A stretch of DNA of 44,255 bases from positions 1 to 44,255 of the IMG/VR virus record IMGVR_UViG_2874920711_000009; one strand, written 5' to 3'. The position numbers and the translations under genes were made by a program. Source of the DNA: a virus. Taxonomy: Duplodnaviria; Heunggongvirae; Uroviricota; Caudoviricetes. Under the pieces are notes generated by a model. The model did not search any database, was not told the origin of the DNA, and saw nothing but the letters and a program-made list of their open reading frames with translations. Positions 16,743 to 38,173 of the stretch are shown here, piece after piece. Positions within the stretch are counted from its first letter, which is position 1. Each line of letters begins with the position of its first letter.

Positions 16743-16745
16743 GAT

Positions 16746-20017: not shown

Positions 20018-20038
20018 TGCTACTCCCCCACAACTGAA

Positions 20039-20813: not shown

Positions 20814-21614
20814 TTAACCGCGCTTCGCCTTCTGCGTCGCGGTGGTTTTTCGTGTTGCAGGCTTCCGCGTTGTCTTTTTACTTTTGCTGCTTTCGTCCTG
20901 CGTCTGCGGTGTGCTGGCATCTTCTGGTGCGGCTGCAGAATCAGCTTTTTTCAGGGCGCGGGAAAGGGTTGCAATCTCGCGTTTCACACCTGCGTTCGGG
21001 TTCAGGTGCATTGCTTCGCGCAGCAGCTTCAGTGACAGGGCCATGCTGTCCGCATCGCTCAGGCCACGGCGGGCAAAGGCGCACGCCTTGCATAATTTGG
21101 CGCGCACTTCGTCCGGCATGTCCTGGTCGGTGACAATCTCCCGGAGGGTATCCAGTGGTTCGATAAAGGCGGACAAATCCGCGTCGGCATCCGTCCCGGC
21201 CTGCGTCAGTACCGGGTTGCAGATTTCTTCGGTCAGCACTGTGGCAGCAGTACGGCCAAAGTTATCCGGCATGATGAGGTTGTGACGGACCACATACGCG
21301 CCAATACGCAGCGCAAGCGGAAGATCGCCGCAGTCAATCGCCCACACCATCAGCATGGCAATCACTTCGTCCTGCTGCCCACCGTCAGCCTCCAGCGTTC
21401 CCTCAATCCAGCCGGAAAAGTCCGGCAACAACTCTTTTTTGATGGCGGCTTTCGCGCTTCTGGCCTGTACGCCCTTAAGCCGGGCCTGTGCCAGACGCAG
21501 ACGATACAGCACCTCTTCATGCGCGGTACGCGCGGCATGGTCCACGCCTTCATTCGCCCGGCCTGCGCGCTGTGCCATCACGTTCTGCCAGTGTTGCTGT
21601 GCAGGAGTAATCAT
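20814..21614 (-). CDS. M: terminase small/endonuclease subunit gpM
   Basis: 266-aa ORF with basic C-terminal tail, between N and L. Confidence 0.8.
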   Translation of the reverse strand: MITPAQQHWQNVMAQRAGRANEGVDHAARTAHEEVLYRLRLAQARLKGVQARSAKAAIKKELLPDFSGWIEGTLEADGGQQDEVIAMLMVWAIDCGDLPLALRIGAYVVRHNLIMPDNFGRTAATVLTEEICNPVLTQAGTDADADLSAFIEPLDTLREIVTDQDMPDEVRAKLCKACAFARRGLSDADSMALSLKLLREAMHLNPNAGVKREIATLSRALKKADSAAAPEDASTPQTQDESSKSKKTTRKPATRKTTATQKAKRG

Positions 21615-21659
21615 TTTTTCTCTCCGTTACAGGCGGGCATGATGCCCGCCGTGAGTTGA

Positions 21660-22711
21660 TTAGCTGTCGGCGAACTTCAGGCCAGTGACCATCGCGTACT
21701 TGCCATAGTCTTCAACGACATAAGCGTCATTGATGGACTGGTAGGTGGCGATGCGGTTGTATTCCGGTTCGTCTTTCATCAGACGACGCATTGAACCTTT
21801 CTGCCAGTAAATCGACAGGTTGTTGAACGAGGTGATCAGCATCGTTGAATCCGGGAAGAACGGCGCAAGGAACACGCCCAGCCCGCCAATGGTGCGCGAT
21901 GACAGAATGAGCTGCCCGGCGAGTAATTCCGCATTAGGATTCTGGCCGCTGATGCTGTTCAGCACGGACAGACGCAGCGAGTTAAACAGGTTGCGCCCCA
22001 TAATCACCACGAGGTCGTCAGCTTCCTTGTGCCATTCATCCAGCAGGGATGAGCGCGCGTCCTGTACCAGAGCATCAGCGTTCGCATACTTACCGCGTGC
22101 GCCACGGTGTTGTCCATGTTACGGGAGGTCAGCGTCACGTCATTCATAACGCGTTCGCTGGCGTCGGTTCTGATGTGCTCCAGCCACCCCACGTTAACGT
22201 CCTGAAGCAACTTGTTGGTGCTGAAGTTGGACTCATCCGCGTGAGACGTGCCGTTGAAACCGATCATGATGCGGTCAAGTGCCACCTGTCGGGCAATCTG
22301 TGCGCTGATGCGGGACTGAAAATCAGGGTGTGCCGCCCAGGCATCAAGCTGCGGATATGAAATAAACGTGTCGTAGTTCACCTGTTCGCACTGGTATTTG
22401 CGGTTTTTCAGATCAACCACGTTATTCGGGTTACGGCGTTTTGTGCCGTCATAACTGGTATTCGTGCGCGCAATCGGCCCGGTGGTATCCAGGAGGATTT
22501 TTTCGCCTTTCTGGTCGGTCACGCCGATCACGTTAATTCTTTTTGTAAATTCGGTGCTTTCCTTTGAGGCGTTTTCAAAACGCTGCTGTACCGAGGGTTC
22601 CACGGTAAATCGCGATACCAGTGCGGAAACCGGGATATTGTTAAGCGACGCCTGCTGCGCCATATAGCAACCCAGCTTGTTGCGGGTAATATCTGACATC
22701 ACCAGATTCAT
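21660..22711 (-). pseudogene. N: major capsid protein gpN, frame break near 22005
   Basis: N-terminal 235-aa fragment 22004..22711 and C-terminal 116-aa fragment 21660..22010 both resemble P2 gpN (e.g. LQDVNVGWL, YVVEDY). Confidence 0.85.
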
Positions 22712-22734
22712 AAAAAATTTGCTCCTTTGTCTTA

Positions 22735-23569
22735 TCAGAAGTCAGCCAGCTGGTCGGAGGCAGCGCCCGTTGCGGTGAACCGGTTCTGCGGATCGCCGTC
22801 CTGCGTGCGCAGTTTTTCCTTCAGTGCTGCCAGCTCTGTGGTCAGTAAAGTGATTTTCTGGCTGTCCTGTTGATGGCGGGTTTCCAGCACATTAAAACGG
22901 TCGATAATGTCGGCCTGTGACGTTGCGACACCTTCCACCGCTTCCTGAATACGGGAGAAACTGGCGTCATCCGCTTTGCGTCCACGGCCAATAATCCCAT
23001 AACGCGGTTAAACCACTGGGTGCCTTCTTCCTGACGTTGTTCGGTGAGTTCGATAAGTTCTGACTCCATAGCGGCGGTAAACATCGCTACGTCTCCCTGC
23101 TGACAGTTGAATGTCATCAGTTGCATACGTTGTTGTGCCGCAAAGGCCAGACGTTCCGTGCCCAGGCTGGCAGGGGTGTCGGTCATTGCCAGCCCGCGCA
23201 GGTAAGGGCCTCCCGTGATGGTTGACTGTGGTTCCAGCTCAATACTGGAGTAAATTTTTTTACCATCGTTAAGCAGGGACATCATGCGAGCGGTCGGCTC
23301 AATTTCGGCATACAGTGCCGTGCGACCTGCCAGCGGGCCATCGGTTATGTCTTCGGTGCTCAACCCCACAACATCGCCCATAGCGGAAAACTCGCTGCCG
23401 GGAGTGGTGACAGGATGTGCTCAATATTCACACGTGCACCATAAACGGACGGGTTATAACTGGTGGCGGCAGCTTTCAGCATGTCGCCGTTGATTTCGCG
23501 CCCGTCTGCCGTTACACCGGAGACAGCCACGCGAAACTTTTTGCGGGATGTCTTTTTTTCATTAGCCAT
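22735..23569 (-). pseudogene. O: capsid scaffolding protein gpO, two frame breaks
   Basis: Three consecutive fragments 23360..23569, 22842..23381, 22735..22938 in different frames. Confidence 0.8.
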
Positions 23570-23720
23570 AGTTTTTGCCCTCTGACTGGTTCTTCAGTCA
23601 TGATGGCAAAGCGTAACAGGCTGATACAAAGGGCTTTTGTTGTAAGAAAACGGCCAGAACAGGGGTTAAGGAGAACAGTTTCGCGCGCGGGTAATCTTCC
23701 TGTAATTACTCAGGGGAGCA

Positions 23721-25471
23721 ATGATTCAGGACGCTTTTGTGCGCCAGCGTGCGCGGCAACTTTACTGGCAGGGTTATCCGCCCGCAGAGATATCACGTCT
23801 GATGGGAATAAACCCGAACACGATTTATGCGTGGAAAAAACGCGACCAGTGGGATGAAACACCACCCGTGCAGCGTGTTACGCAGTCCATCGATGCGCGC
23901 CTCATCCAGCTTACTGAAAAACAGAATAAAACAGGCGGTGACTTTAAGGAAATAGACCTGCTGACCCGGCAGCTTAAAAAGCTGCATGATGGCCAGCCGG
24001 ATGTGATGGCCGCAGGAAAGAAAGGCCGGGCGAAAAAACTCAAAAATCATTTCACGCCGGAACAGATTGCCGCACTGCGGGAAAAAATCATCAGCAGGCT
24101 GGAGTGGCATCAGCGGGCTGGTTTGACTCCCTGACACTTTGCAGGGAAGCCGGGATACGTAACAGGATGATCCTGAAATCCCGACAGATTGGGGCGACCT
24201 GGTATTTTGCACAGGAAGCTCTGCTGACGGCGCTGCGTGACAATGTGGCGCAACCTTACCAGCGTAACCAGATTTTTTTGTCTGCGTCGCGTCGTCAGGC
24301 GTTCCAGTTTAAAAGCATTATTCAGAAGGCCGCGGCTGAAGTTGATGTGGAGCTGAAAGGGGGCGATAAAATCATCCTCTCCAACGGCGCAGAGCTGCAT
24401 TTTCTCGGCACTTCTGCTGCGTCGGCACAGTCCTATACGGGCAATTTTTATTTTGATGAATTTTTCTGGGTCAGTCGCTTTGCTGAACTGCGCAAGGTGG
24501 CTGGCGCTATGGCAACCCTCAGCGGACTGCGGCGCACCTACTTCTCCACGCCATCCACCGAAACGCACGAGGCATACGCCTACTGGAACGACGACCGCTG
24601 GAACGAGAAAAAGGCCTCGCATAAACGCCAGCGTTTTTCTGTGGACTGGAAAACGCTGCATAACGGGCTTATCTGCCCTGACCGGACGTGGCGGCAAATT
24701 GTCACGCTGGAAGATGTGGTTAATCACGGCTGGAAACACACCGATATTGACGAAATCCGTGATGAAAACACCGAAGACGAGTTCCTCAATCTCTATATGT
24801 GTGAGTTTGTTCGCGAAGGGGAATCGGCATTTAACCTGAATATCCTGATTGGCTGCAGTGTTGACGGATACGACGACTGGAAAGACTGGAAACCTTTTGC
24901 TCCCCGCCCGATGGGGAATCGTCCGGTATGGATTGGGTATGACGCAAACGGCAGCAGTGGCAACGGCGACAGCGGCGCTGTGTCCGTGGTGGTTCCTCCG
25001 GCTGTTCCTGGTGGCCGTTTTCGAACGGTGGAGACGCGACGCGTTCAGGGGCTGGAGTTTGAAGAACAGGCCAGAGTCATTGAAGAGTTCACGTATCGCT
25101 ACAACGTGGAACACATCGGCATTGATGTGACGGGCGGGAACGGGGAGGCTGTTTATCAGATAGTGAAACGGTTTTTCCCTGCTGCTATTCCGTACACCTT
25201 CACGCTGTCATCAAAACGGTCGCTGGTACTGAAAATGCTGCAAATAATGCGTGCCGGGCGGTGGGAATACGATCGCGCCGAACGCGAGCTGGTCGCGGCC
25301 TTTAACGCCGTGCGTAAGGTGAAAACACCGGGCGGCTTTATCACTTACGAAACGGACCGCGCGAGGGGGATCAGCCACGGCGACCTTGCGTGGGCAACCA
25401 TGCTTGCTGTCATTAACGAACCGATTGGCGGCGAAGGAGAAAACGAGCGTTTCACGGTTATGGAGTTCTGA
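23721..25471 (+). pseudogene. P: terminase large (ATPase) subunit gpP, frame break near 24110
   Basis: Fragments 23721..24134 and 24104..25471; divergent from O across a 150-bp promoter region. Confidence 0.85.
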
Positions 25472-26513
25472 TGAGCAGAAAAAATAAAAAAGTGCGCATG
25501 AGTTCACGCATTGATCTCGCTGATGCGCTCAGGAAAGAATCATCGCTCAGTGCATTCACATTTGATGGTCCTTATCGCCTGACCGGGCATGACCTGCTGG
25601 ACAATATGTACTGTGCTGATAACGGACGGTGGTATGAAACCCCGGTGGACTGGTACGGTCTGGCAAGAGCAGCCCGGCAAACGTCCTGGCATCAGTCTGC
25701 GCTTTACTTTAAGCGCAATGTATTACTCGGTTGCTACATCCCGCACCCGCTGCTTTCCCGGCAGGATTTCTCGGCGCTGGCGCTGGACTGGTTTGTGTTC
25801 GGTAACGCATTCCTTGAGCTTAGAAGCAATATGCTCGGCGAACCGCTTAAATTACGGCACGCACTGGCGAAATACATGCGACGCGGAAGCGATCTTGAAT
25901 CATGGTGGTATGTGCAGGATGGCAAGGACGCGTTCCAGTTTCGCCCTGGCAAAGTGTGCCACCTGATGAATCCGGATATTAACCAGGAAATCTACGGCAT
26001 GCCGGAATATCTTGGCGCATTACTCTCGGCCAGCCTTTCTCATTCGGCGGACATGTTCAGAAAACTGTACTACGACAACGGATCCCACGCCGGGTGCATC
26101 ATCTACATCGGTGCAGCGCAGGTAAACCGCGAAAGCATGGACTCCCTGAAAGAAACGTTACAGGGCGCGCGTGGTGGTGCGTTTAAAAACGTGCTCATCC
26201 ATGCGCCCAACGGGGCAAAGAAGGTGTGCAAATTTTGCCGTTCCAGCAGATCACTGCAAAGGATGAGTTCATGAATGTTAAGGCGGCATCCCGTGATGAT
26301 GTGCTGGCTGCGCACCGCGTTCCGCCGCAACTGATGGGGGCGATGCCGGGCGAAAAAAGTGCGTTTGGTGATGTGGAGAAGGCCGCGCGGGTTTACGCAA
26401 TTAACGAGCTGATGCCCGTCATGGAGGCCATGAAGCACATCAATGACTGGCTTGGCGAAGAGGTGATCCGCTTTAACCCTTACGCACTGCTAGATACCCA
26501 GCCCACATCCTGA
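25471..26513 (+). pseudogene. Q: portal protein gpQ, frame break near 26230..26270
   Basis: Fragments 25471..26274 and 26226..26513; start overlaps the P stop. Confidence 0.85.
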
Positions 26514-26934
26514 CGCGCTTCGCTTGTCTGCTGCTTCGCCGGGCATAAAAAATTTATGCCCCGACTCTCCAGCTCCTGTATCAATCAGATAATTTCACGA
26601 CGCTTTTCTGCTTATTGTCATCATCGGCGGTCAGACTCTTACGCAATCCCACCGCGTTGACTGCATGTTCTCGCCGCCTCAGTGCGATTTTGACGGCCTT
26701 ATCTGCCACCCATCAAATCAAAAGCCCTCACGTCTTTTTCACGCTCAGCGTAAGAAATATAGCCATTCTGTTGTGTCTCTGCGACATCGTTCAGGGAATG
26801 CTATTTACCCCTGAAACGCGGGCTGTTCCCCCGTCACCTGCGCGCAGAAAAAGCGCGTTTTTTTGTGCACGCACGGATCCTTGACGGATCCAGCCGCCAC
26901 GCGGGCTGGAAGGGTAAAAAGTCGTTCAAAAAAA

Positions 26935-26961
26935 TTGTGCAAATTTGTGCACTATTGTGCA
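26935..26961. promoter_or_regulatory. three TTGTGCA direct repeats at exact 10-bp spacing (a fourth at 26863)
   Basis: ATTGTGCAAAT / TTTGTGCACT / ATTGTGCATTA; candidate protein-binding iterons next to the cos-proximal end. Confidence 0.3.
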
Positions 26962-26968
26962 TTAAAAT

Positions 26969-26991
26969 AAACGCCCTGGAAGAGGGCGTTT
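26969..26991 (-). terminator. hairpin terminator for the minus-strand cargo operon
   Basis: AAACGCCCT-GGAAG-AGGGCGTTT, followed on the minus strand by ATTTTAAT. Confidence 0.45.
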
Positions 26992-27001
26992 GGGCTCATT
27001 T

Positions 27002-27262
27002 CTATAGCTTTGATGCAGGCTGGGCTAGATGCAAGGGTTGGACATACCAGCCTTTTGATAACCAACTCTCTGCAACCTCTTTACTCCTTGTTATTGCTGG
27101 TATTCCGATGCCGTTATTTACATGCATCCATGCTACTGGCTCTGCTTCCAGTGATACCAGTGCAATTTCATAAGCACGGCGCTCAATATTGTCTCGAACG
27201 TCCAGGCTGCCTATGCGCTCTTTGATTTCTTTAATCAGTTCTTTGTCGGTGAAAGTTGTCAT
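27002..27262 (-). CDS. hypothetical protein (86 aa)
   Basis: ORF track; last gene of tightly packed minus-strand operon. Confidence 0.5.
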   Translation of the reverse strand: MTTFTDKELIKEIKERIGSLDVRDNIERRAYEIALVSLEAEPVAWMHVNNGIGIPAITRSKEVAESWLSKGWYVQPLHLAQPASKL

Positions 27263-27272
27263 GTGTTAGTCC

Positions 27273-27536
27273 TTATCCTGCTGTGCTTTCAACTGATGAG
27301 GGGAACAAAATCTTTTCATCAAACCCTGCATTCATATCATGAACAGCAACACACCAATCCATTGACGAACGATTATCAAGAGCCTCCATGATTTCATCCA
27401 TGTGGCGCAGGTCATACAGGTAAATGCTTTTATCGCCAATGGTGTAAAAACCAATTTTTTTCGGTGATGGGCAGCGATCAAGAACGTCCTGTAATTCATT
27501 CAACCATGCCCGTTCTTTTTTTGTTAAAGTTGCCAT
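27273..27536 (-). CDS. hypothetical protein (87 aa)
   Basis: ORF track; AAGGAG RBS; start 1 nt after preceding stop. Confidence 0.5.
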   Translation of the reverse strand: MATLTKKERAWLNELQDVLDRCPSPKKIGFYTIGDKSIYLYDLRHMDEIMEALDNRSSMDWCVAVHDMNAGFDEKILFPSSVESTAG

Positions 27537-27537
27537 A

Positions 27538-27954
27538 TCACTCTCCTTTGATGCGAATGCCAGTGGTACTCATTCTCCTGATTTCCCAGAGCACACGAGG
27601 AACACCACCGTTTCCGACCGGATCGCGTTTACTCCGCAGGGCGACGCTTGATTCCGCCCAGCTTTTTCTTGGAGGAAGCTCTTTCACACGAACAAAACCA
27701 GCTGCGCGAAGAGATGCTCCTGATTCATCTGCCCGGGTGTACGTAATACAACGTTGATAACCCATAGCTTTTGCTGCCCGCCAGACAGCACCATAAAGCG
27801 CGCTGTTAGCGTTGCGTTCTCCTGTGGTACATGTGCGATTTACTTCAAGCGTTAATCCATCGTCCAAATGTCGTGCAACAGGTCGACCGGCTGTCGCCAC
27901 ACCTATCAATTCTCCGGCATCATTTCTCAGACCAATGCTGAATTTATGCCCCAC
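27538..27954 (-). CDS. hypothetical protein, possible acetyltransferase-like fold; 5' end uncertain
   Basis: GTG start without RBS; a short upstream ORF with AAGGAG RBS (from about 28024) in another frame suggests a frame break at a CCCCGG run. Confidence 0.45.
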   Translation of the reverse strand: MGHKFSIGLRNDAGELIGVATAGRPVARHLDDGLTLEVNRTCTTGERNANSALYGAVWRAAKAMGYQRCITYTRADESGASLRAAGFVRVKELPPRKSWAESSVALRSKRDPVGNGGVPRVLWEIRRMSTTGIRIKGE

Positions 27955-28030
27955 CGGGGTTTATTGTGTCGGTGATGTCTGGATATAAATGCCTTCGCAA
28001 CACGAAGAGTAACCGGTGAAATCTGCACTC

Positions 28031-28345
28031 TCACTCTCCTTTGATACCAATGTTTACAGTCTGGCAAGCTTCTCTGAGCACCCAGTCAACAGCGTCTTTC
28101 CATGCTCCGGTTTCAGTTGGCGGATTCTCACGCTTTACCAGTTCATAGAAACGTACTGCTCTAACCAGTCCATCTGACGGTTTTGCCTGTAGTGCAGCCT
28201 GAGCTATACGGTATGCCTGGAGCATACGGGCGTCGTTGATATCCATTCCGAACGGAATTTCTGATGATCGTGATTCTGCATCTTCAAGCCTGGCAATTTC
28301 TTTACGTAAAAAGTATTTCAACTCTTGTTTTTGTTTTCTGTTCAT
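28031..28345 (-). CDS. hypothetical protein (104 aa)
   Basis: ORF track; start overlaps stop of upstream gene. Confidence 0.5.
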
Positions 28346-28710
28346 GTGTTTTTTCCCTTTTTGTCTGCCACTTCTCTCCTGATAATTTCATTGCACAAAT
28401 CCACGCACTCATTGCAGATGTAAACAGACGGTCCAGCAATCACCTTTGTGACTTCGTACTGGGATTTATTGCAGAAGCTGCAATAAATCGTTTCCTCGCC
28501 TGAAGCCCATGTTTTGCTGGTTTTGCCAGACATCAGTTGTTTGAGGTCTTTTTCACGACGAAGAACTATCTGGCCACATTCAGCTATTTTTTGGATGTTG
28601 ACATTTTCTTCTTTCGCCAGCGCTTCCATCCGCTCAATCAGTCGCTGCGCTTTTTCTCTGTCAATGTGTTGCATTGTGTCCCCTTGTTTATGTTCCCGGG
28701 TTAAAGTCAT
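28342..28710 (-). CDS. small protein with C-terminal ClpX-type C4 zinc-binding domain
   Basis: [41 protein letters not shown] closely matches the ClpX N-terminal zinc-binding motif (CSFCGK...ICDEC). Confidence 0.6.
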
Positions 28711-28736
28711 CAGGGCGGATGCGCCCTGATGTTGTG

Positions 28737-29048
28737 TTATTCGGGAAATAACGCCCGGATATTTCCGGCCATCTGACTGGTTATCTGTGCGGTTGATACT
28801 GGCTGTGATGCGGGGCGTTCTGTCCTGGTTTGTGTCACTGATAACGCCTCATCATCAGCCCATGCAGCCAGTCGGTAAGCCTCTGCCGGATTCATTTTCA
28901 GAAGTGCCAGCCCGGCCAGAAAAGCCACGCGTTGGCCGCTTTTGCGGGCTTCTGGTGTAAGGCTGTCCAGCCAGGCGCATGCTTCGCCTTCGTTCTTGAC
29001 GGCGGCGGGCTTCAGATAGAAACTTATTCGTCTGGTTGGTGTCGTCAT
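28737..29048 (-). CDS. ParR-like partition adaptor
   Basis: Directly downstream of parM homologue; [14 protein letters not shown]...[13 protein letters not shown] resembles ParR; AGGAG RBS before ATG 29048. Confidence 0.5.
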
Positions 29049-29052
29049 TGAT

Positions 29053-30035
29053 TTACTCCTTGTCCATTGCGTACAGCCCATTAACCAGAGCAAACTGTGG
29101 CACCCCGTCCGCGATGAAAGTCGCATTAACTCCGCAGGCTTCGCGGATAGCGGGTGCCACAATCTCCGCTCCTCCACCTACAACCATCACCCGCCCGTAA
29201 CCCGAAAAACCCGCCAGCGCGCGGATCACGCGTTGTTTCAGTGTTTCTTCCTTTTCACGAATAACCGCCATCAGGCTGGCGTAATGTGCGTCATTGTGGA
29301 TGTGCTGGCGCAGCCAGGCTTCATCATGGCGATGTTCGATAATGGTATTGGCGATGTGGTGACTGGTACGCATACCGTTAGTGGCCATCACCGACAGTAC
29401 GGCATCGGCCATCAGGGAAACGCCTACGTGTGGATCGCAAAATACCTGGCTGATACCTGCCAACTGCCCCTGAACCTTTGCCACATCCAGCGTGGTTCCG
29501 CCCAAATCCACAATCAGCAGGGATTCAAACGGACTCATGTCAGCCAGTGTTTTAAAGCCAGTTGGAATGGATTCAGGCATAACCCGTACGTTACGGATAG
29601 TGAATGCTTCGCCGTTCTGGTACTCCACCGGGCGCATAACGTTCGCTTTTTTGCGGTTGATGTTGGCCATGTCCGGCTGTGCGTTTGTGTCGAAATACTC
29701 GCTCAGTGGCAGGGTGACAACCACATCCACCTCCTGTGGCGTGATGCCTGATTTGACCAGCGCGTGATGCCTGATTTGACCAGCGCGTGATGAATGGCAA
29801 TGACATTCACATCGCTGTACTGGTATTGCGTGTCGGTCGTCTGGACAAAGCGATCGCTGACCGGATCAAAACCATAGCGCACGCCATCAAGCATGTAGTT
29901 CGCGGGCTGCGTGCCACCGAACGGCGCAGACCATTCCGACTTGAAGCTGTTCGGGCTGATGGCGTTGCGGCGTTCGCCGTTCTCAGTCCATGCCAGCTTG
30001 ATGTTGGTGGAGCCGTCGTCGATACAAATTTTCAT
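29053..30035 (-). pseudogene. ParM/StbA-family actin-like ATPase, disrupted by a 23-bp tandem duplication
   Basis: MKICIDDGSTNIKLAW...SPNSFK.EW...YSDVNVIAIHHAL and C-terminal LLIVDLGGTTLD, VVGGGAE match ParM; removing one copy of 29741..29763 restores a 319-codon ORF. Confidence 0.75.
29741..29786. repeat. perfect 23-bp tandem duplication (GTGATGCCTGATTTGACCAGCGC x2)
   Basis: Read directly; flanked by GCGTGATG microhomology. Confidence 0.85.
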
Positions 30036-30178
30036 GTCGCTTTTCCTTATGTTGATTAATTAATCGTTTACGGGATTCTGAAATCCCGTTTTTTCCGTAA
30101 GCGCCCCATCAGCGACGTCTTGTGAAAATTGTCCTGTCTGGCAACAATCGCGCCCATCTATATTGATGGACACGAACG

Positions 30179-30781
30179 ATGAATTCCCAGACAACAAAAG
30201 ATATTCCCTGCTTCCGTTCTTATTTGCCTGATGCCCTGCGTTTAAGATTTGAAGATAAACTGACCATCCGGGCCATCGCTCAGCGTCTGGGTCTCAGTCA
30301 TTCCACAATACATACGCTTTTTCAGCGATTTCTTGCATCCGGTATCGCATGGCCATTGCCCGATTCAGTTTCATTCGCTCAACTTGACGCCATCCTTTAT
30401 GCCAACAGAAAGAAGGAATTAACAGAGCCTCAAATCAGAGAAGGCTCATGGCGAAAAGAACGGCGAACCAGCTATAGCCGTGAATTTAAGGTCCGTCTGG
30501 CTAAGCAGGCGTTACAGCCTGGGGCTGTTGTTGCCCGGATCGCCAGAGAACACGATATCAATGATAACCTGCTGTTTAAATGGAAAAGCCAGTACGAGGA
30601 CGGCTTACTGAGCGATGATGACATACAGGAATGCATGCCTGTCCCGGTGGCACTGACTGATACGCCGGAGCCGACCAGACCAGTTACAAATCCCTTCTGG
30701 CGTAACAAGCATGATGAGCGCCCTGAGGGGCTCCCGGAAACGTCCCACGGTGCGAGCTGCATCTTAAATCAGGTGTGGTAA
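30179..30781 (+). CDS. IS66-family TnpA-like protein (HTH)
   Basis: ORF track; 3' end differs from copy B by a G4/G5 homopolymer length. Confidence 0.7.
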   Translation: MNSQTTKDIPCFRSYLPDALRLRFEDKLTIRAIAQRLGLSHSTIHTLFQRFLASGIAWPLPDSVSFAQLDAILYANRKKELTEPQIREGSWRKERRTSYSREFKVRLAKQALQPGAVVARIAREHDINDNLLFKWKSQYEDGLLSDDDIQECMPVPVALTDTPEPTRPVTNPFWRNKHDERPEGLPETSHGASCILNQVW

Positions 30782-30847
30782 AACTGTTTGACCCTCTCAC
30801 TCCGGAACTGTTACGGGCGCTAATCCGCGAAATGAAAGGGGTATCCG

Positions 30848-31195
30848 ATGATAACGCTGCCGACCGGTACCAGAATCTGGATCATCGCTGGCATCACAGA
30901 TATGCGTTGTGGCTTCAATGGCCTGGCTTCGAAGGTGCAGAACACGCTGAAAGATGACCCGTTCTCCGGGCATATCTTCGTCTTCCGGGGCCGCAGTGGC
31001 AAAATGGTGAAAATACTGTGGGCCGATCGTGACGGGTTATGCCTGTTCGCCAAACGCCTGGAACGGGGCCGCTTCGTCTGGCCGGTGACCCGGGAAGGGA
31101 AAGTGCACCTGACGCCAGCTCAGTTATCCATGCTACTGGAGGGGATCGCGTGGCAACATCCCAAACGGACAGAACGGCCTGGCATCCGGATATAA
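30848..31195 (+). CDS. IS66-family TnpB
   Basis: 115-aa ORF typical of IS66 orf2. Confidence 0.8.
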   Translation: MITLPTGTRIWIIAGITDMRCGFNGLASKVQNTLKDDPFSGHIFVFRGRSGKMVKILWADRDGLCLFAKRLERGRFVWPVTREGKVHLTPAQLSMLLEGIAWQHPKRTERPGIRI

Positions 31196-31214
31196 CCCGT
31201 GATAAAACAAGGGA

Positions 31215-32770
31215 ATGAACAATGAACTCCCCGATGATATTGAGCTGCTTAAAGCCATGTTGCGTAAGCAACAGAGTCGGCTTCGACAGTATGCCTGTCA
31301 GGTCGCGGGCTATGAGCAGGAAATTGAACGGCTGAAAGCGCAACTCGACAGGTTGCGTCGTATGTTGTTCGGCCAGAGTTCAGAGAAAAAGCGTCATAAG
31401 CTTGAAAATCAGATCCGACAGGCAGAAAAACGACTGTCGGAACTGGAAAACCGGCTGAACACAGCCAGAAATCTTCTGGAAGATGCATCGTCAGTCACAG
31501 ATTCACCTGACACCAGTCCCCCGTCAGAAAACCCGATCGCCAGTAAGCCTGAATCCCCGGGAGACACATCGCCTTCTGCCTGCTGAAACCAGTTGCCCGG
31601 CCTGTGGAGGTGTTCTGAAAGAAATGGGGAAACAATCTCAGAGCAACTGGATATCATTAATACCGCCTTTAAAGTTATCGAAACCATACGTCCCAAACTG
31701 GCCTGTAGCCGGTGTGATGTCATCGTTCAGGCACCACTTCCCCCTAAACCGATCGAACGCGGTTATGCCAGTGCAGGGTTACTTGCACGGATCCTGGTCA
31801 GCAAATATATGGAACATATCCCTTTATATCGCCAGTCAGAAATATACGCGCGACAGGGCGTGGAGCTGAGCCGTAATACCATGGTGCGCTGGGTATCAGA
31901 AATGGCAGACAAACTCCGTCCTCTGTATATAGCGCTGAATGACTATGTTCTGGAGGCAGGAAAGGTGCACGCAGATGACACTCCGGTGAAAGTACTGGCC
32001 CGGGGAACGGAAAGACGAAAACGGGTCGTCTGTGGGTATACGTCAGGGATGATCGTAATGCGGGTTCATCCCTGCCGGCAGCCGTCTGGTTCGCGTATTC
32101 GGCAGATCGCAAAGGAGAACATCCGCAGCTCCACCTGGCAAAGTATCAGGGCGTACTGCAGGCTGATGCCTATGCAGGTTATAACGTACTGTACGAAACG
32201 GGCCGGGTGAAGGAAGCCGGGTGCCTGGCCCACGCCCGCCGAAAAATCCATGACGAGGATGTGCGCCGTCCGACAGAAATGACTCAGGAAGCGCTCAGAC
32301 GGATAGCAGAGTTATACGACATAGAAGCGGAGATACGTGGCAGTCCGGCAGAGGAACGGCTTGCAGTCAGAAAAGCCAGAAGCGTCCAGTTGATGCAGTC
32401 GTTGTACGACTGGATACAGTTGCAGAGGAAAACGCTGTCGAAATATGCGGAGATGGCGAAGGCGTTCGACTATATCCTGAATCACTGGAATGCGCTGAAC
32501 GAGTTCTGTCGTGACGGCTGGGTGGAAATAGACAACAACATCGGTGAAAACGCGTTACGATCGGTGGCGGTTGGAAGAAAAAATTATCTCTTTTTCGGCT
32601 CAGACAAGGGAGGAGAAAGTGCGGCGATCATCTACAGTCTGCTGGTCACCTGCAAACAGAACGAAGTGGAGCCGGAGGACTGGTTGCGCGAAGTGATCGA
32701 GAAGCTCAATGACTGGCCGTCGAACCAAGTGCATGAACTGCTGCCCTGGAACTTCTCGTCTGTAAAATAA
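31215..32770 (+). pseudogene. IS66-family transposase TnpC, frame breaks at homopolymer runs
   Basis: Fragments 31215..31586, 31593..32210, 32207..32770; copy B has the corresponding 504-aa ORF intact. Confidence 0.8.
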
Positions 32771-32798
32771 TCCTTACGCTACGTACTTCTCGGGGCGC

Positions 32799-35090
32799 TT
32801 ACTTATCAGGCAAAGGCCGCTGCTGTTTGCGGCTCTGTGTCCAGCTCTGCATTTCATCACTGCTGTTTTTTGCCTGTTTGTCACGAAGCGAACGCATCAG
32901 CGCCCGGCGTTCGTGCCGTTTCAGTGAGCGCATCCATTCGTTCACTTCAACGCCGTCAGGGAGCTGCGGCCACGGTGCTGGCCGTTCTTTCGGCTGTTCT
33001 GTCCCGTTGTTGTCCGTTTCCTGTACACGGGGACAGTTATTGCCACGAGTCCAAGGGGCGGCAGGGCCGCCCTGAAGGTCAAAACCATTTTCGCGGGTGC
33101 TGTCCTCCGCTTCCGGTTTACGTCTTACCAGCTTCCAGTTATCCGGATGCGTGCACACACGGGAGGATTCCCCGATGAATGGCGACCAGATCCCGTAAAT
33201 CTGTACACTCTGTTCGCCGTAATCGTTCAGCTCATCTGCGAGGTCGTAGGCTGTGCGAATCAGGTAGTCCTTGCGCGGAACAAGTACGCCACCCTGTTTT
33301 TCAATGTAGGTGGCAAAACACCCGGCATCAGCGGCAGCAAGAACCGCATCCATTGCGTCATCCTTCAGCCGTTGCGGGCCTTCTGGGTTGCGTGCTATCT
33401 GGCTGGCAAGGCGGCGGAGTTCACGCCACACCTGACGGGAGGGGATGCCAAAGAACTGGAACTGGCGGACCCGGTGAAGGCGCGCCCAGCCGATGGCGCG
33501 CTCCACGCTCTCGGCCATTGATTTACCTGTTTCGTGGTCAACGCGTGGCTTGCCCGTTTTCGGGTCGATGCCATCCACGGCGCGGCTGTCCAGGTTCTTT
33601 CCGATGTAGGTGGCGATGTAGCTGGTTGGCGTGCCTTTTGAGCCGTCGACGTACTCCGCCTTAAAGCGTGGGGTAATATCATCACCCAGCTCGTGACGAT
33701 CTTCCTGAATGGCAATATCGCGGGTGTGGGACACAATGGTGTCGATTTCTTCCGGATGAGCAAAGACCATCATATGCCAGTGCACGGTGCCGTCATGGTG
33801 AGGCTCCACCGTGCGGATGCCATACCAGCGCAGGCCGTCGCGGTTCAGTTTCTTGCGGACCGCTGCAAAAAACGTGTTAACCAGGTAATCGCTGGAGTCG
33901 CGCATGGTGGCCCCGTTCCATTTGGGATTCGGATGACTGTTCTCTGTTGTGGCGTGGTATTTTGACGGGCAGGTGACAGTCAGAAACACCGCTTTGTCGC
34001 CACGGGCTTCGGCCAGAAGTTCCAGCCCCTTCATGGTGGCCATCATTTCTGCCTTACGGTGAACCGGGTTACTTACTCCCGCGTAATACACTGTCTCGAG
34101 ATCAATCGTGAACCCGTCTTCGTTTTCCAGCATGAAACTTTTCAGGAAATCGCGTGTTTTCTCGCGCTGTGCGCGAAACTCGCTTAACGCGTCCTGGCTC
34201 AGATAGGGTGATGTTTTTCTGGAAACCAGACAGGCGGCGCGGAGTTGTTCTTCTCTCCACTCGCAACGTAACAGCCACAGTTTGCGTTTCCACCATTCCG
34301 CACAGGTCAGGCGAAGGATTGCGCCCGGCAGCAGCTCCGTGTCCGGTTCGTTCCTCCGGTCTTTGTCTGTTGTCAGTGCGTCATAATGTGGAGGCATGGC
34401 GTGCAGGTGTAACGCCATGCGGGCCAGCATCTGATACGCCTTCAGCGTTACATCCATGGTCAGTTCGCCATCGGTCGCGCCAAAGCCATCGCAGAGTTTT
34501 TCGAAGGTGCTGCTGAACATCGCCGCCGTCATGGTGGCCAGCGTCTGTATCTGGTGTTTGTTGAGCTGCGGCAGGTAAAGCAAATCGTCCAGGCGTTCGC
34601 GTCCGGCAAGGGAGCGATAACCCGGTGTCAGCCAGTGTCCGTCAGTGCGATCCAGACGTTCGAATATTTTGCGCAGGGTTCCGCGTGCATAGCGTTCCGC
34701 CTGCCAGCTCTTTTTGCCTTTCCGGCGATCGGCTTCCTGTTTTTTGCGCAGGAAGGAGAGGTGGCGAATAAGCGGATCGCGCAGATAGGACGGCAGCAGG
34801 TGCAGCGAGGCCATGGCTTCATCCACCGCGCCGCGTGCCTGTTTTCTGGCGTCTCCTGCCAGTGTGATGGTTTTGTCCTGTTTTTCCTGTGCGTCCAGGC
34901 TTTTATTAATCAGGTTGCCCAGCGGCGTGGCGGAGAACGCCGCATTAGCCATTTCCTGGCGGCGCTCGTTCTCTACCCGGTAGGCATCCAGCCAGGAGGA
35001 AAGCACGGATTCAGGAGCGGGGATCCCCGTTCCTTCACGCCCCACTGCGTGGCGCGGTTGTTGCCAGTCCCTGATGTACTCTGCCGTCAT
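32799..35090 (-). CDS. A: rolling-circle replication initiation protein gpA
   Basis: 763-aa ORF of gpA size and character; stop codon TAA is formed by the IS66 terminus (G-TAA-GCG). Confidence 0.85.
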   Translation of the reverse strand: MTAEYIRDWQQPRHAVGREGTGIPAPESVLSSWLDAYRVENERRQEMANAAFSATPLGNLINKSLDAQEKQDKTITLAGDARKQARGAVDEAMASLHLLPSYLRDPLIRHLSFLRKKQEADRRKGKKSWQAERYARGTLRKIFERLDRTDGHWLTPGYRSLAGRERLDDLLYLPQLNKHQIQTLATMTAAMFSSTFEKLCDGFGATDGELTMDVTLKAYQMLARMALHLHAMPPHYDALTTDKDRRNEPDTELLPGAILRLTCAEWWKRKLWLLRCEWREEQLRAACLVSRKTSPYLSQDALSEFRAQREKTRDFLKSFMLENEDGFTIDLETVYYAGVSNPVHRKAEMMATMKGLELLAEARGDKAVFLTVTCPSKYHATTENSHPNPKWNGATMRDSSDYLVNTFFAAVRKKLNRDGLRWYGIRTVEPHHDGTVHWHMMVFAHPEEIDTIVSHTRDIAIQEDRHELGDDITPRFKAEYVDGSKGTPTSYIATYIGKNLDSRAVDGIDPKTGKPRVDHETGKSMAESVERAIGWARLHRVRQFQFFGIPSRQVWRELRRLASQIARNPEGPQRLKDDAMDAVLAAADAGCFATYIEKQGGVLVPRKDYLIRTAYDLADELNDYGEQSVQIYGIWSPFIGESSRVCTHPDNWKLVRRKPEAEDSTRENGFDLQGGPAAPWTRGNNCPRVQETDNNGTEQPKERPAPWPQLPDGVEVNEWMRSLKRHERRALMRSLRDKQAKNSSDEMQSWTQSRKQQRPLPDK

Positions 35091-35096
35091 AGTGAT

Positions 35097-35462
35097 TTAC
35101 TTCGTCATGCCATTCAGGGTGTCGCGGCAGACTGTAGCCAGCCGCTGAATTTCCAGCACGGTGTCTTCTGTGTCGGCATGGCGATGTGTGATGCGGATGC
35201 TGTCGGCAATCACATCGACGATTGCAGAGGATGGGCGCTGGTAAATGCCAATAACGGACGGGGTGCCACCTTCAATGCGGTAAAGCCTGTAATTTCCCTC
35301 GTGGCTGTCAATCATGTAGCGACCATCAATAACAATCTTTCCGTCAGCGAGCTGCGGTACAGGCAGGGATTTCAGGTACATGTCATAACGATCACGCACG
35401 CGAGCGGCAAGATCACGCTCTGTGTTGAGCAGGTATTCAAGAAAGTCGTTGGCGAGAATCAT
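35097..35462 (-). CDS. hypothetical early-region protein (121 aa)
   Basis: ORF track; immediately upstream of A. Confidence 0.5.
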   Translation of the reverse strand: MILANDFLEYLLNTERDLAARVRDRYDMYLKSLPVPQLADGKIVIDGRYMIDSHEGNYRLYRIEGGTPSVIGIYQRPSSAIVDVIADSIRITHRHADTEDTVLEIQRLATVCRDTLNGMTK

Positions 35463-35534
35463 TGCGGCAATCCTCTTGTTACAGATGTGCGAAGGCCTCC
35501 CGCCGCAAGGTGCAGGAAAGGCCCGGAACAGGAA

Positions 35535-35765
35535 TTAATGGAGTTTGTTTTGCTGCTGGATGAGCTGTTGAAGCTCGTGCAGATCATCCGCCAGATAGCT
35601 GAAAACAGAGGCGGAATAAATGTTTGATAGTGCGTGGCTGCGCTCATGCAACATATTGATGTGCATGATTTGCGCGACGCGTGATGCGCGGGAAAGTCTG
35701 CGGTTGATTTCAGTCTGGATGTGACGACGCTCCGCGATAGCGCGGTGTGGTTTGCGGTTTGCCAT
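35535..35765 (-). CDS. hypothetical early-region protein (76 aa)
   Basis: ORF track. Confidence 0.5.
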   Translation of the reverse strand: MANRKPHRAIAERRHIQTEINRRLSRASRVAQIMHINMLHERSHALSNIYSASVFSYLADDLHELQQLIQQQNKLH

Positions 35766-36087
35766 GGTGTGGCCCCTTGTGTAGTAAGTTGTGAAAACTC
35801 ACCATCCAGAGCTGCGAAACTGTGGGTGGCGAGACGTACGAGGTTCGCAGTACCGGCTACACAAGAACCCGGCCCGACCGAAGTCGGCCCCGTACGCCCC
35901 GCCATAATTCTGACGCGAAAAAAACGTAGCAATACAGTACGCACAAAAAAACCGCTGGCGCGGTTGTGCGCTTGTGTAGTCAGCAGGCTGCGAAACCCGG
36001 CACCCGTTTTGTGAGGTGCAGCGGAAATGTAACCTGACTGATTGCGGCATGGCAAGCGGTTTTTTTGTGTGTGCATGTTCTGGTTTC

Positions 36088-36387
36088 TTAGTGGTTCAGA
36101 AAAAAATCAAAAACCTTGTCAATGCGTTGCAGCAGCTCTTGCTGTATTGCTTCCGGCGTTTCCGGTTCGCCTGGCGCCTCCAACGTCGCGCAGAAATCCT
36201 CGATTTCATGACGGAGCGTCAGGCGAATGGCGAGAGGTGTGGTTCTGGCGTGCTCCAGCTCATCCAGCAGCGCCAGCACAGCAGACGGCGAGAGCATTGC
36301 GCGAAACGCCAGTAATTTTTGAGGCGTTGCCATTCGTTGCAGGTCAGTCGCCAGTTCGCGTAATTCCTGGTGGTTGATGGCGCTCAT
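36088..36387 (-). CDS. hypothetical early-region protein (99 aa)
   Basis: ORF track; overlaps next gene by 4 bp. Confidence 0.5.
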   Translation of the reverse strand: MSAINHQELRELATDLQRMATPQKLLAFRAMLSPSAVLALLDELEHARTTPLAIRLTLRHEIEDFCATLEAPGEPETPEAIQQELLQRIDKVFDFFLNH

Positions 36388-36629
36388 GCTCTGGCTTCCT
36401 TCAGTAGCTGGTTAAACGTGTTGGTAAGTGGATTGCCGCACCCGAACGGCATCGGGTTTATCTGGTAAGAAAAGCGACCGCCTGTTTTGCGCTCTTTTCT
36501 TATGACTGAACCACTGCGCCAGAGTCGGCGTAACTCCGCATTAATGGCTGTGGTTGGGGTATTCAGTGCTGCGGCGATTTCTCCACCGCTACACCCCGGA
36601 TTGGCGGCGATATAGTCCAGAATGGTCAT
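36384..36629 (-). CDS. putative winged-helix DNA-binding protein (81 aa)
   Basis: MTILDYIAANPGCSGGEIAAALNTPTTAINAELRRLWRSGSV has HTH character. Confidence 0.5.
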   Translation of the reverse strand: MTILDYIAANPGCSGGEIAAALNTPTTAINAELRRLWRSGSVIRKERKTGGRFSYQINPMPFGCGNPLTNTFNQLLKEARA

Positions 36630-36829
36630 CTGCGTGACTCCTGTACCTGTCGGATAAGGTTCACCCGCACCACATTCGTGGCGCAGAAGTAAGTGCCGTC
36701 AGTGAGATAGATGTGATGTGCATCCTTTTCTGAACGGTGTTTGTCGATTGTGGTAATCAGGCGTTCGTCGACTTCGTATTCACGCCCTCTGGAGGTAAAA
36801 CGAACGACAGGAAAATGCTTAATTGCCAT
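36626..36829 (-). CDS. hypothetical protein (67 aa)
   Basis: ORF track; overlapping start/stop with neighbours. Confidence 0.45.
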   Translation of the reverse strand: MAIKHFPVVRFTSRGREYEVDERLITTIDKHRSEKDAHHIYLTDGTYFCATNVVRVNLIRQVQESRR

Positions 36830-36915
36830 TACGCCTCCTTGGCGTGTGCGAATACCTCCGCGAATGCGGATTGTTTTTACATTTTCTTATTTAATCTGTG
36901 GTTTTATTTGCTCTG

Positions 36916-37029
36916 TTATTCGCCAGTGAAAAAGCGTTCAATCTTTTTTATTGAATGAATAATTCGCATAATCCCAATAGCGCAGGCCACCGAAATAATC
37001 AGAACAAGCCATGAGATAAATATACTCAT
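36916..37029 (-). CDS. small hydrophobic peptide (35 aa), single TM
   Basis: Hand translation MSIFISWLVLIISVACAIGIMRIIHSIKKIERFFTGE; ATG overlaps stop of upstream gene (ATGA). Confidence 0.3.
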   Translation of the reverse strand: MSIFISWLVLIISVACAIGIMRIIHSIKKIERFFTGE

Positions 37030-37271
37030 GCGATATTCCCCAGCTTATACGGTTCAATATGTTCCCCGCATTCTGCGGCACAGATCAGCTCGGAAAGTTC
37101 GTTAAGTGCATCCAGATCATCAGCGTAAAAAGCCACGTCATACAGACTTCGGATTGCTCTGGTCAATGAGTCACGGGCCGCACGTTCAGCATGAGCGCCT
37201 GATGCACTTAAGCGAAAATAAAAACGCTCAAGTGCTTTGTTAATGAGAGTTTTATATTCTTTGCCCATCAC
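37026..37271 (-). CDS. hypothetical protein (81 aa)
   Basis: ORF track. Confidence 0.45.
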   Translation of the reverse strand: MMGKEYKTLINKALERFYFRLSASGAHAERAARDSLTRAIRSLYDVAFYADDLDALNELSELICAAECGEHIEPYKLGNIA

Positions 37272-37279
37272 AACGCCCT

Positions 37280-37567: not shown

Positions 37568-37577
37568 AAAGCACCTG

Positions 37578-37919: not shown

Positions 37920-38173
37920 GTTAAAGACTCTGTACAGATTTAATTATTCCGGCATAGAGGCCGAACTCAAAATATTTGCGATTAAATCGCATCGCATTGT
38001 TTTCACGTTTTGCGGACTGCTGGTTCATTTTCGTTTGCCTCCGCACATGAGAATTGCGCCGCTTAAGAGGTAACCGAAGTTAATTGATAGTATTACAATT
38101 AACATAAGGTCCAATTTGTCCATGCCACACATAATTACCCTCATTGCAGTAGTTGTGGGTTGTGGATTTGCCC

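Follow-up and report, generated by a model that had tools for sequence, protein, structure and literature searches.

A ParM-ParR partition cassette typical of P88-like phages, very probably decayed in a Shigella prophage through an IS insertion and a later slippage frameshift

The partition genes described here are very probably the standard type II ParM-ParR cassette of a P88-like prophage, decayed to a pseudogene by the arrival of an insertion sequence and, later, by a frameshift due to slippage within parM. They lie in a stretch of 44,255 nucleotides, hereafter the window, which is positions 1 to 44,255 of the virus record IMGVR_UViG_2874920711_000009. The features on which the argument rests are collected in Table 1. 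Taken for itself the window is of little weight, since it shows the familiar decay of a prophage in Shigella, with an IS insertion first and then a frameshift by slippage in a gene already useless.

Table 1. Position of the features of the decayed partition locus in the window
Feature	Position	Strand	Description
Hairpin, 10-bp stem	28708..28731		Downstream border of the par cassette; inverted repeat I6 in P88
parR, intact	28737..29048	-	103-aa adaptor of the StbB/ParR family; Pfam PF10784 (Plasmid_stab_B) 1.6e-24, 85.9 bits against a cut-off of 25
parM pseudogene	29053..30035	-	R1-type actin-like segregation ATPase; 319 codons after removal of one 23-bp copy
parM fragments	29703..30035 (110 aa) and 29053..29730 (225 aa)	-	From the ORF list
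Tandem array, frameshifting mutation	29739..29792		TRF: period 23, 2.3 copies, 100% matches, no indels
Native remnant upstream of parM, 61 bp	30036..30096	-	Aligns to P88 8795..8855
Palindrome CGGGATT-N4-AATCCCG	30071..30088		Candidate ParR-binding (parC) half-site; pattern search
ISSfl3 (IS66 family), copy 1	30097..32802	+	99.7% identity to annotated ISSfl3; between gpA and parM
Truncated replication endonuclease gpA	32799..35090	-	763 aa against 940 in P88; Pfam Phage_GPA

The element in the window is identified by its alignments as a P88-like prophage of the P2 family (Peduoviridae, Xuanwuvirus) residing in a Shigella dysenteriae-type chromosome. In the nucleotide alignment, P88 35142..2071 and window 3440..37898 share the same gene order at 92-96% identity, while the immunity/integrase end and part of the cargo diverge in the window prophage and the genes that follow the par cassette are unlike those of P88. 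The source contig encodes the Pfam families Phage_GPA, Phage_portal, Terminase_6, Phage_GPO_N, Phage_cap_P2, Phage_term_smal, Phage_GPL and Phage_tail_X, and this set of P2-type replication and morphogenesis genes, together with the collinearity with P88, bears out the P2-like nature that a previous reading of the sequence alone had proposed for the host element. In the annotated genome of P88 the order is gpA, a 76-bp spacer, parM and parR, and the arrangement in phages 520873 and phiSM is identical; more generally, the genes of the cassette and their position after gpA are alike in the Xuanwuvirus phages (P88, 520873, P884B11, Citrobacter phage phiSM and others), and the 61 bp upstream and the hairpin downstream are the same in P88 and in the window. 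The two differ in that only the window has the 23-bp duplication and in that ISSfl3 replaces there the 3' end of gpA and the distal upstream repeat. RefSeq names the P88 pair 'plasmid segregation protein ParM' and 'partition protein', and PHROGs covers it with entries PHROG 691 and PHROG 2515. The same sequence-only reading had also remarked that P2 is not known to carry a partition system; P2 is in fact devoid of ParM, but the novelty that was implied fails, because a parM-parR pair right after gpA is a constant and already annotated feature of Xuanwuvirus. On these comparisons the cassette is standard, previously known equipment of P88-like phages.

The par module was found in at least 741 of 5426 complete E. 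coli genomes, with 2110 of the matched places in E. coli being chromosomal. In 50,697 phage records, no integrating phages other than the P88-like ones have an R1-type ParMR, and the carrier of the window cassette is itself an integrated P2-like prophage rather than the low-copy plasmid expected of type II systems. The parM gene evolves with a dN/dS of about 0.05 (0.02-0.06), which indicates strong purifying selection, and all 81 related parM genes examined are single copy and intact. The module is therefore judged to be functional in the relatives of the window prophage, since parM is intact in every one of them, dN/dS stays within this range, and the strand and the tail of ParR are conserved.

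The first lesion of the locus is the insertion of ISSfl3, whose context the sequence-only reading did not include. The element lies 61 bp upstream of parM, is bounded by the terminal inverted repeats GTAAGCGCCCC and GGGGCGCTTAC, and its flanks, TTTTTTCC and TTATCAGG, show no 8-bp target duplication. At this point the alignment with P88 has a gap: P88 8245..8794 (about 550 bp) is missing, and with it the 3' end of gpA and the distal repeat of the candidate centromere. The gpA frame stops at a codon overlapping the end of the IS, so that the C-terminus reads ...QQRPLPDK* and the last 178 or so codons are cut off. Public assemblies contain an identical truncated gpA protein in 61 indexed blocks. 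The sister strain L090 has the identical gpA-ISSfl3 junction and parM intact with the single-copy sequence; the IS damage is thus the earlier event and the duplication the later one, because L090 shares the junction and the truncated gpA and yet retains an intact parM. The course of decay has three steps. ISSfl3 inserted between gpA and parM, with the loss of about 550 bp; replication as a phage would have been lost with the end of gpA, as the 178 missing codons suggest, and selection on parM would have been relaxed because the prophage was presumably no longer able to replicate as a phage; finally, in one sub-lineage, the 23-bp unit was duplicated and the frame shifted, probably through replication slippage between two 8-bp direct repeats (GCGTGATG) lying 23 bp apart.

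After repair the protein of the window allele of parM is 99.4% identical in amino acids to the ParM of P88, and the two genes differ at 17 of 960 nt; it is because of the 23-bp insertion that the parM region as a whole appears only about 96% identical to P88. The private amino-acid changes of the window allele are A151T and A155T. For the relaxed selection proposed above the numbers are small, non-synonymous changes making up two of the five private substitutions as against none of the 12 shared ones (Fisher p = 0.07). As for the products of the split gene, the 110-aa N-terminal fragment contains the phosphate-1 motif only and a possible 225-aa restart product would be without that motif, and neither is expected to form an actin-fold ATPase. 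ParR is left over intact but has neither its motor nor one half of the region to which it presumably binds, and its transcription from the early operon is probably lost as well.

A different explanation regards the cassette as cargo beneficial to the host, acting in defence or in plasmid incompatibility or exclusion, so that the demise of the prophage would have had no part in its loss from Shigella. The interval between gpA and the portal gene, in which the cassette sits, is where P2-like phages harbour variable cargo genes such as tin and old. The genes that follow the cassette differ from those of P88, and a ParR that binds the parC of a plasmid might in theory give rise to incompatibility; the specificity of ParR sets incompatibility among C. 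perfringens plasmids, for example (PMC9426499). We consider this explanation improbable. The cassette is constant, not variable, across Xuanwuvirus genomes, PADLOC gave no matches for ParM, ParR and five neighbouring ORFs, and parM decayed solely in a prophage that had lost gpA. Moreover, cross-reaction with plasmids is unlikely because the nearest plasmid ParM is at most 52% identical and the parC of the IncI plasmid examined has no repeat motif in common with the phage sites.

The second lesion is the tandem duplication in parM. The array consists of GCGTGATG followed by CCTGATTTGACCAGC, repeated twice and closed by a further GCGTGATG; the exact units GTGATGCCTGATTTGACCAGCGC occupy 29741..29763 and 29764..29786, and the 8-bp GCGTGATG recurs at 29739, 29762 and 29785. 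No other exact tandem duplication with a unit of 12-39 nt is present in the 44-kb window. In L090 the site reads GCGTGATG-N15-GCGTGATG, a single copy, and the window differs from it by one extra 23-bp unit, the site being otherwise unchanged. The array was absent from the 5426 complete E. coli genomes when searched with a 54-nt query under a strict E-value cut-off; this query was used in place of a 91-nt one spanning the array, which was non-discriminating since single-copy genomes tie with it at 100% through overlapping pieces. Likewise a 38-nt junction pattern had no match in the GTDB representative genomes, a result of little weight because Shigella is merged into E. coli there. The array is not a chance occurrence, as these searches and the single copy in all 81 related genes examined show.

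The assembly from which the window derives, CP026824.1, is full of G/C homopolymer deletions: about 35 other indels distinguish the window from P88, being 1-base deletions in G/C runs, and most of the apparent pseudogenes of the window are artefacts of this kind. The duplication too might then be an assembly or consensus error of error-prone long reads, with the gene in reality intact, an explanation to which we give very little credit. In fact, the identical array occurs in three assemblies, CP026824.1 itself, CP027027.1 and JAAOUC010000094.1, and the frameshifted 110-aa product is found in the same three. CP027027.1 is a clean assembly in which the genes for portal, terminase and capsid are intact, and JAAOUC010000094.1 is a draft contig; 22 of the homopolymer deletions fall within the stretch that these two cover and all of them are absent there. 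A perfect 23-bp duplication is moreover unlike a homopolymer error, and the single copy of L090 shows that both alleles exist. The duplication is therefore a real mutation and an assembly artefact is not its cause, as follows from its presence in three separate assemblies, the other two of which lack the homopolymer frame breaks of the window. The true lesions of the window prophage are the duplication and the IS elements only. The sequence-only reading had described the perfect duplication with its flanking microhomology, had predicted that deletion of one copy would give a 319-codon gene and had held the mutation to be probably real, unlike the homopolymer breaks; all three points were upheld, the first by TRF, the exact repeats and GCGTGATG, the second by a public protein identical to the repaired one, and the third by CP027027.1 and JAAOUC010000094.1.

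The three assemblies that bear the array are near-identical, with 0-3 SNPs in 10-20 kb, and could come from closely related isolates, for which reason the duplication was probably a single event. It has also to be asked whether it could be a reversible switch through which the expression of ParM is phase-variable, given that one-copy and two-copy alleles occur in closely related strains and that exact tandem repeats can in principle revert. This is very improbable: a single type of duplicated allele is known from three near-identical assemblies, against one copy in the 81 relatives and in about 1240 E. coli genomes, and switching would have nothing to regulate because the surrounding prophage is presumably replication-defective already.

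The decayed gene itself is recognised with little difficulty once the frame, which is shifted after codon 90, is restored. Removal of one 23-bp copy yields an ORF of 319 codons containing ...HHALVKSGITPQEVDVVVTLPLSEYFD..., and the exact protein that it encodes is present on 50 public contigs named for Shigella dysenteriae; since this protein exists in public data, the one-copy repair is taken as the true ancestral allele. Its matches to Pfam run from end to end, with StbA_N (1.9e-81, 272 bits) over residues 1-157 and the ParM C-domain (1.3e-68, 230 bits) over residues 159-316. It matches phrog_691 at 4e-90 and the R1 ParM structure PDB 1mwk at 3e-92, entries of R1 ParM being the only PDB matches, and it is 46% identical to R1 ParM over the full length. 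The nucleotide-binding motifs compared (phosphate 1, catalytic Glu region, phosphate 2 and adenosine) are IDDGSTNIKL, VMPESIP, DLGGTTLD and GGGAE, and they are identical or nearly so to those of R1 ParM. Plasmid ParM genes related to it number more than 5000 at 40-52% identity (tblastn), none being above 52%. That the ORFs belong instead to another ASKHA-fold family (Alp7/AlfA-type Alps, PRTRC protein D, MreB, FtsA or a sugar kinase), so that there would be no partition system, is hardly conceivable, as weak secondary matches to ALP_N (25.7 bits, below the cut-off), PRTRC_D (20.8 against a cut-off of 214.8) and MreB-like_C stand against end-to-end ParM-specific domains, PDB matches to R1 ParM only at about 1e-92, the large family of plasmid ParM genes and the matching StbB/ParR gene downstream.

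The parR gene follows with its ATG 4 nt past the parM stop and with AAGGAG just upstream of it. Its product matches phrog_2515 at 1e-58, and the exact parR sequence is present on at least 1000 public contigs. Conservation along ParR describes an invariant N-terminal strand, a helix, a hypervariable linker and a conserved C-terminal tail, in which NI(R/Q)A(L/F)FPE is kept among otherwise divergent variants; such a tail would fit a ParM-binding function. The earlier identification of the two split ORFs as ParM/StbA along their length and of the next gene as ParR-like is thus confirmed by both Pfam domains and the R1 ParM structures for the former and by the PF10784 match for the latter, and the weak profile matches to other ASKHA-fold families leave the R1-type assignment of ParM in place. 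The hairpin that closes the cassette is terminator-like on the opposite strand, and in a mosaic locus (L036) the block of homology stops at P88 10160.

Upstream of parM, intact relatives have two 42-nt repeats (family D1 in P88), each containing CGGGAYT-N4-AATCCYG, which are 73 bp apart and conserved in 79 relatives. In P88 the palindromes are at 8730..8747 and 8803..8820 and occur nowhere else in that genome. The remnant in the window holds the proximal repeat, its distal end clipped by the IS, and one palindrome is left of the two. In the mosaic locus the palindromes are co-inherited with the par cassette. Read on the opposite strand, both sites resemble terminators as well, and no sigma-70 promoter at consensus stringency was found between gpA and parM or between the two sites. 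The two palindromes are proposed as a candidate parC. A search of related prophages for intact parMR and an upstream iteron centromere, which the sequence-only reading had suggested, gives an intact parM in all of them and, upstream, two palindromes rather than iterated direct repeats.

The comparison with known systems bears on what the cassette may do when it is intact. The ParMRC systems of R1 and R100 (par/stbAB) are likewise ParM-then-ParR operons with repeated sites just upstream, and their ParR belongs to the same Pfam family, PF10784, as the phage protein; they reside on low-copy plasmids and the phage cassette on an integrating myovirus. The R1 centromere is composed of iterated direct repeats, with five iterons in each of its two sets (PMC2241845); the P88-type candidate has instead two palindromes of about 20 bp, 73 bp apart. 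In the CGP3 prophage of Corynebacterium glutamicum, AlpC and AlpA with alpS form a system whose adaptor binds upstream of its own operon, and AlpC/AlpA is expressed soon after induction, the excised phage circle depending on it to replicate efficiently (Donovan et al. 2015, PMC4446434). Like the P88 module it combines an actin-like ATPase and a DNA-binding adaptor from an integrated prophage, but there is no close sequence kinship between the two (ALP_N is below the Pfam cut-off), and host phylum and type of phage are different. CGP3 AlpAC is, by analogy, the best functional precedent for a possible role of the P88-type module. The sole other phage with an R1-type ParM among the phage records searched is the P1-like plasmid prophage D6, at 47.5% identity. 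D6 is maintained as a plasmid, for which the use of a partition system would be evident; P88-like phages differ in carrying an integrase and being found in chromosomes.

If the cassette of the intact relatives works as R1 ParMRC does, ParM filaments capped by ParR on the upstream palindromes would move phage genomes that are circular and not integrated, and the analogy with CGP3 AlpAC would place this after infection or excision. Whether intact P88-like phages really employ an actin-type segrosome on such circles, with a two-palindrome centromere and with the Shigella copy as a natural knock-out, is in our judgement evenly balanced. The segrosome could serve a short-lived phase in which the phage behaves like a plasmid, either before it integrates or after it excises, or it could position replicating circles, and its centromere would be unusually small, with one palindrome inside the end of the replication gene. 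If this is so, selection on parM would be tied to the ability of the phage to replicate, and ParM would serve the phage and not the host.

We found no paper asking of what use the partition machinery of a plasmid is to an integrating phage, and no experimental work on ParMR function in P88-like phages; the P88 and phiSM papers leave the partition genes undiscussed, save one that is listed as a 'fitness' gene, and phages go unmentioned in a 2025 paper on genome-encoded ParMs. The accessions of the source assemblies were likewise found in no publication. As inducible and genetically tractable phages, P88 and phiSM would allow the role of ParMR to be tested directly. Plasmid records having the cassette at 95% or more are few, and they hold a partial cassette or P88-like DNA. 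The one inspected is a circular 34.5-kb record with a whole P88-like genome, integrase included, which hints at an episomal state. A separate 1.4-Mb 'plasmid' record with the cassette is probably a mislabelled piece of chromosome.

The parM/parR module in the window is a decayed copy of a par cassette of the type found in Escherichia phage P88 (Peduoviridae, Xuanwuvirus), lying in an IS-ridden Shigella prophage. A sequence-only reading had taken two split ORFs together for ParM, and its identification holds: after removal of one copy of a 23-bp repeat, the "repaired" product matches the Pfam domains StbA_N (1.9e-81) and ParM C-terminal (1.3e-68) end to end, its only PDB relatives are R1 ParM entries (~1e-92; 46% identity across the alignment), and the phosphate-1 (DDGSTNIK), MPESIP, phosphate-2 (DLGGTTLD) and GGGAE motifs align with those of R1 ParM. 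That reading had named assignment to another ASKHA family as a refuting outcome; the searches speak for ParM instead, the other ASKHA families scoring no higher than their cut-offs. The product of the next gene, described as resembling ParR, matches Plasmid_stab_B (StbB/ParR; 1.6e-24), and the PHROG families of both proteins are already labelled 'partition protein'; ParM, ParR and five neighbouring ORFs gave no defence-system match.

The break in parM had been attributed to a real tandem duplication rather than to a homopolymer change, and its description proved correct in all details. Tandem Repeats Finder reports a single array at 29739..29792 (period 23, 2.3 copies, 100% matches, zero indels), with two units exactly at 29741..29763 and 29764..29786 and the flanking microhomology GCGTGATG at 29739, 29762 and 29785; removing one unit gives a 319-codon ORF with the predicted sequence, and for unit lengths of 12-39 nt the 44-kb window contains no further exact tandem duplication. 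An exact look-up of the frameshifted 110-aa product returned three NCBI assemblies: CP026824.1, whose 100% identity with window 19703..40035 marks it as the source of the window, CP027027.1, a separate assembly, and JAAOUC010000094.1, a separate draft contig. The 54-nt array is the same in all three; it has no match in the 5426 complete E. coli genomes searched and is found in 0 of 81 related loci examined.

The remaining frame breaks behave differently. Alignment with P88 reveals about 35 single-base deletions in the window. Nearly all of them fall within G/C runs, and they are spread over genes and intergenic DNA alike, the signature of systematic homopolymer under-calling. Over window 19718..40030, the part that both sister assemblies also span, CP027027.1 and JAAOUC010000094.1 concur and restore the missing base at each homopolymer site, and the portal, terminase and capsid genes are intact in CP027027.1. 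Most apparent pseudogenes (those of tube, tape measure, capsid, terminase, portal, holin and other genes) are therefore sequencing artefacts of CP026824.1, whereas the duplication, which persists in assemblies where these gaps are filled, is a real, inherited mutation.

Window 3440..37898 is collinear with P88 at 92-96% identity. In P88, gpA (replication endonuclease) is followed, after a 76-bp spacer, by parM, parR and a gene for a ClpX-zinc-finger protein; the related phages 520873 and phiSM share this gene order. At a coverage threshold of at least 80%, the module is present in at least 741 of 5426 complete E. coli genomes, where it is nearly always chromosomal and carries the annotations ParM and 'plasmid partitioning/stability family protein'. 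It also occurs in 14 phage records and at least 247 IMG/VR contigs. Among 50,697 phage records searched by tblastn, only Xuanwuvirus and the P1-like plasmid prophage D6 have an R1-type ParM. The implication that a type II partition system is unusual for such a carrier thus stands for P2 itself, which lacks R1-type ParM, but not for the P2-like genus Xuanwuvirus, all of which has it: in P88-like phages parMR is constant and has already been annotated. True plasmid ParMs are at most 52% identical to the phage protein; the phage clade is thus old and distinct rather than recently captured.

One circular record submitted as an E. coli plasmid, NZ_CP148288.1 (34,461 bp), turns out to be an entire P88-like phage genome that includes integrase, gpA, parM and parR. 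It may represent an excised or episomal form, and bears on the question of a plasmid-like state in these phages. In the record of phage 503458 parM is annotated in several pieces, and a 26.8-kb plasmid record from Shigella boydii, NZ_CP049283.1, has matches to parR and the 3' two-thirds of parM only; both may be further independent damaged copies, or sequencing errors.

A search of related prophages for an intact parMR had been suggested. In the 81 related loci, which represent 65 distinct nucleotide sequences, parM is without exception intact. Pairwise dN/dS is ~0.05 across this set, a value biased low because the IMG/VR parM set was picked by protein identity, and 0.02-0.05 among P88, 520873 and phiSM, independently isolated phages free of that bias. 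ParR variants share an invariant N-terminal 14-residue stretch, a conserved 11-residue helix, a hypervariable linker and a conserved C-terminal NI(R/Q)A(L/F)FPE tail, as would be expected if the N-terminus binds DNA and the tail binds ParM.

Upstream of parM, P88 and its relatives carry two 42-nt repeats spaced 73 bp apart, one within the last gpA codons and one intergenic, each containing the palindrome CGGGAYT-N4-AATCCYG, which has exactly two matches in the P88 genome. In a mosaic locus (L036), P88 homology restarts exactly at the first repeat and stops at a hairpin after parR, so that the cassette appears to comprise the two repeats, parM, parR and the hairpin. In the same P88-like contig (L036 3081..3860) the last ~520 bp of gpA are swapped for unrelated sequence, which suggests that the gpA C-terminal tail is exchangeable and that the cassette has a definite left boundary. 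The palindromes are candidate parC sites, although the R1 centromere is described as two sets of five iterons (PMC2241845), unlike the two palindromes here; they also resemble intrinsic terminators on the opposite strand. No sigma-70 consensus promoter for parMR was found between gpA and parM, so transcription may reach the genes by read-through from the early operon, which would suit a function early after infection or induction. A precedent for this putative role is the integrated prophage CGP3, whose early genes AlpC and AlpA are reported to be required if the excised circle is to replicate efficiently (PMC4446434). We found no paper testing the centromere or the early-role proposal for P88-like ParMR. 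What use a type II partition machine is to an integrating phage is a question about the phage genus rather than about this locus.

The exact repaired 319-aa protein occurs on 50 public contigs, named 'plasmid segregation protein ParM [Shigella dysenteriae]', which indicates that the repair reconstructs the true ancestral allele and that the host is of an S. dysenteriae-type lineage. This allele has five private nucleotide changes, two of them non-synonymous, vs none of the 12 differences from P88 that are shared (Fisher p = 0.07), weakly suggesting relaxed constraint. ISSfl3 copy 1 stands in place of P88 8245..8794, with no target-site duplication left, and shortens gpA from 940 residues to 763. 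This truncated gpA occurs in 61 indexed blocks of public assemblies; one of these contigs, UYIS01000011.1, from a sister strain, has a gpA-ISSfl3 junction identical to that of the window and an intact, single-copy parM. The duplication, which arose in a sub-lineage, is therefore younger than the IS insertion and deletion. In this contig the ancestral site reads GCGTGATG-N15-GCGTGATG, a classical substrate for slippage, and the duplication could have arisen by slipped-strand replication. The module in the window is a mix of damaged parts and remnants: parM is frameshifted past codon 90 and split off from the upstream operon by 2.7 kb of IS, the distal repeat is deleted, leaving a sole palindrome (30071..30088), and ParR, itself intact and the same as a widespread allele, has no motor.

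Features of the window
Feature	Coordinates	Strand	Remarks
parM N-terminal ORF	29703..30035	minus	110 aa
parM C-terminal ORF	29053..29730	minus	225 aa
parR	ATG at 29048, end at 28737	minus	103 aa, after split parM ORFs
ISSfl3 copy 1	30097..32802		IS66 family, 2706 bp, 61 bp upstream of parM
ISSfl3, second copy	40507..43220		99.7% identical to first; intact 504-aa TnpC
HTH repressor-like ORF	40065..40457		one side of second ISSfl3
Prophage integrase	43236..44255		other side of second ISSfl3
IS3-family element	38174..39447		HTH_Tnp_1 + rve; early region near cox
IS630-type DDE_3 transposase	1016..2047		near the other end
Segment not in P88	27029..28034		~1 kb, between ClpX-zinc-finger/phrog_660 genes and portal side
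Macro-domain protein	12352..13254		300 aa, Pfam 1e-18
Possible hexapeptide-repeat ORF	11117..11722		Pfam Hexapep 23.6 bits, under cut-off 27
VasI-like protein	2131..2916		type VI secretion associated; just past P88-collinear block, low-coordinate end
One-base deletions (examples)	6730, 6789, 6932, 20025, 22093, 24115, 26212

Besides the two ISSfl3 copies, the IS3-family and IS630-type elements lie within or next to the prophage, which has been struck by at least four IS copies. UYIS01000011.1 and the draft assembly L088 carry an 8-bp tandem duplication, CCTGTATG CCTGTATG, absent from the window, in tnpA of ISSfl3 copy 1 (~30622), splitting it into 72-aa and 161-aa products; the lineage thus has two small slippage duplications. 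In L088 and two other drafts (L089, L091) gpA-ISSfl3 runs straight into the integrase and a gene carrying PdxB Pfam domains; this reflects repeat collapse or else a genuine rearrangement mediated by the IS.

The segment not in P88 codes for an XF1762-family protein (NCBIfam 5e-48; best PHROG 'Mom-like DNA modification protein'), whose start is lost through a homopolymer error at 27956 and which two small ORFs adjoin; a cargo or anti-restriction function is possible. The Macro-domain and hexapeptide-repeat ORFs, candidate cargo genes, lie in the tail-fibre/invertase variable region, unaligned to P88. The VasI-like protein matches the 'T6SS VasI family protein' in the phiSM gene list (PMC6456863).
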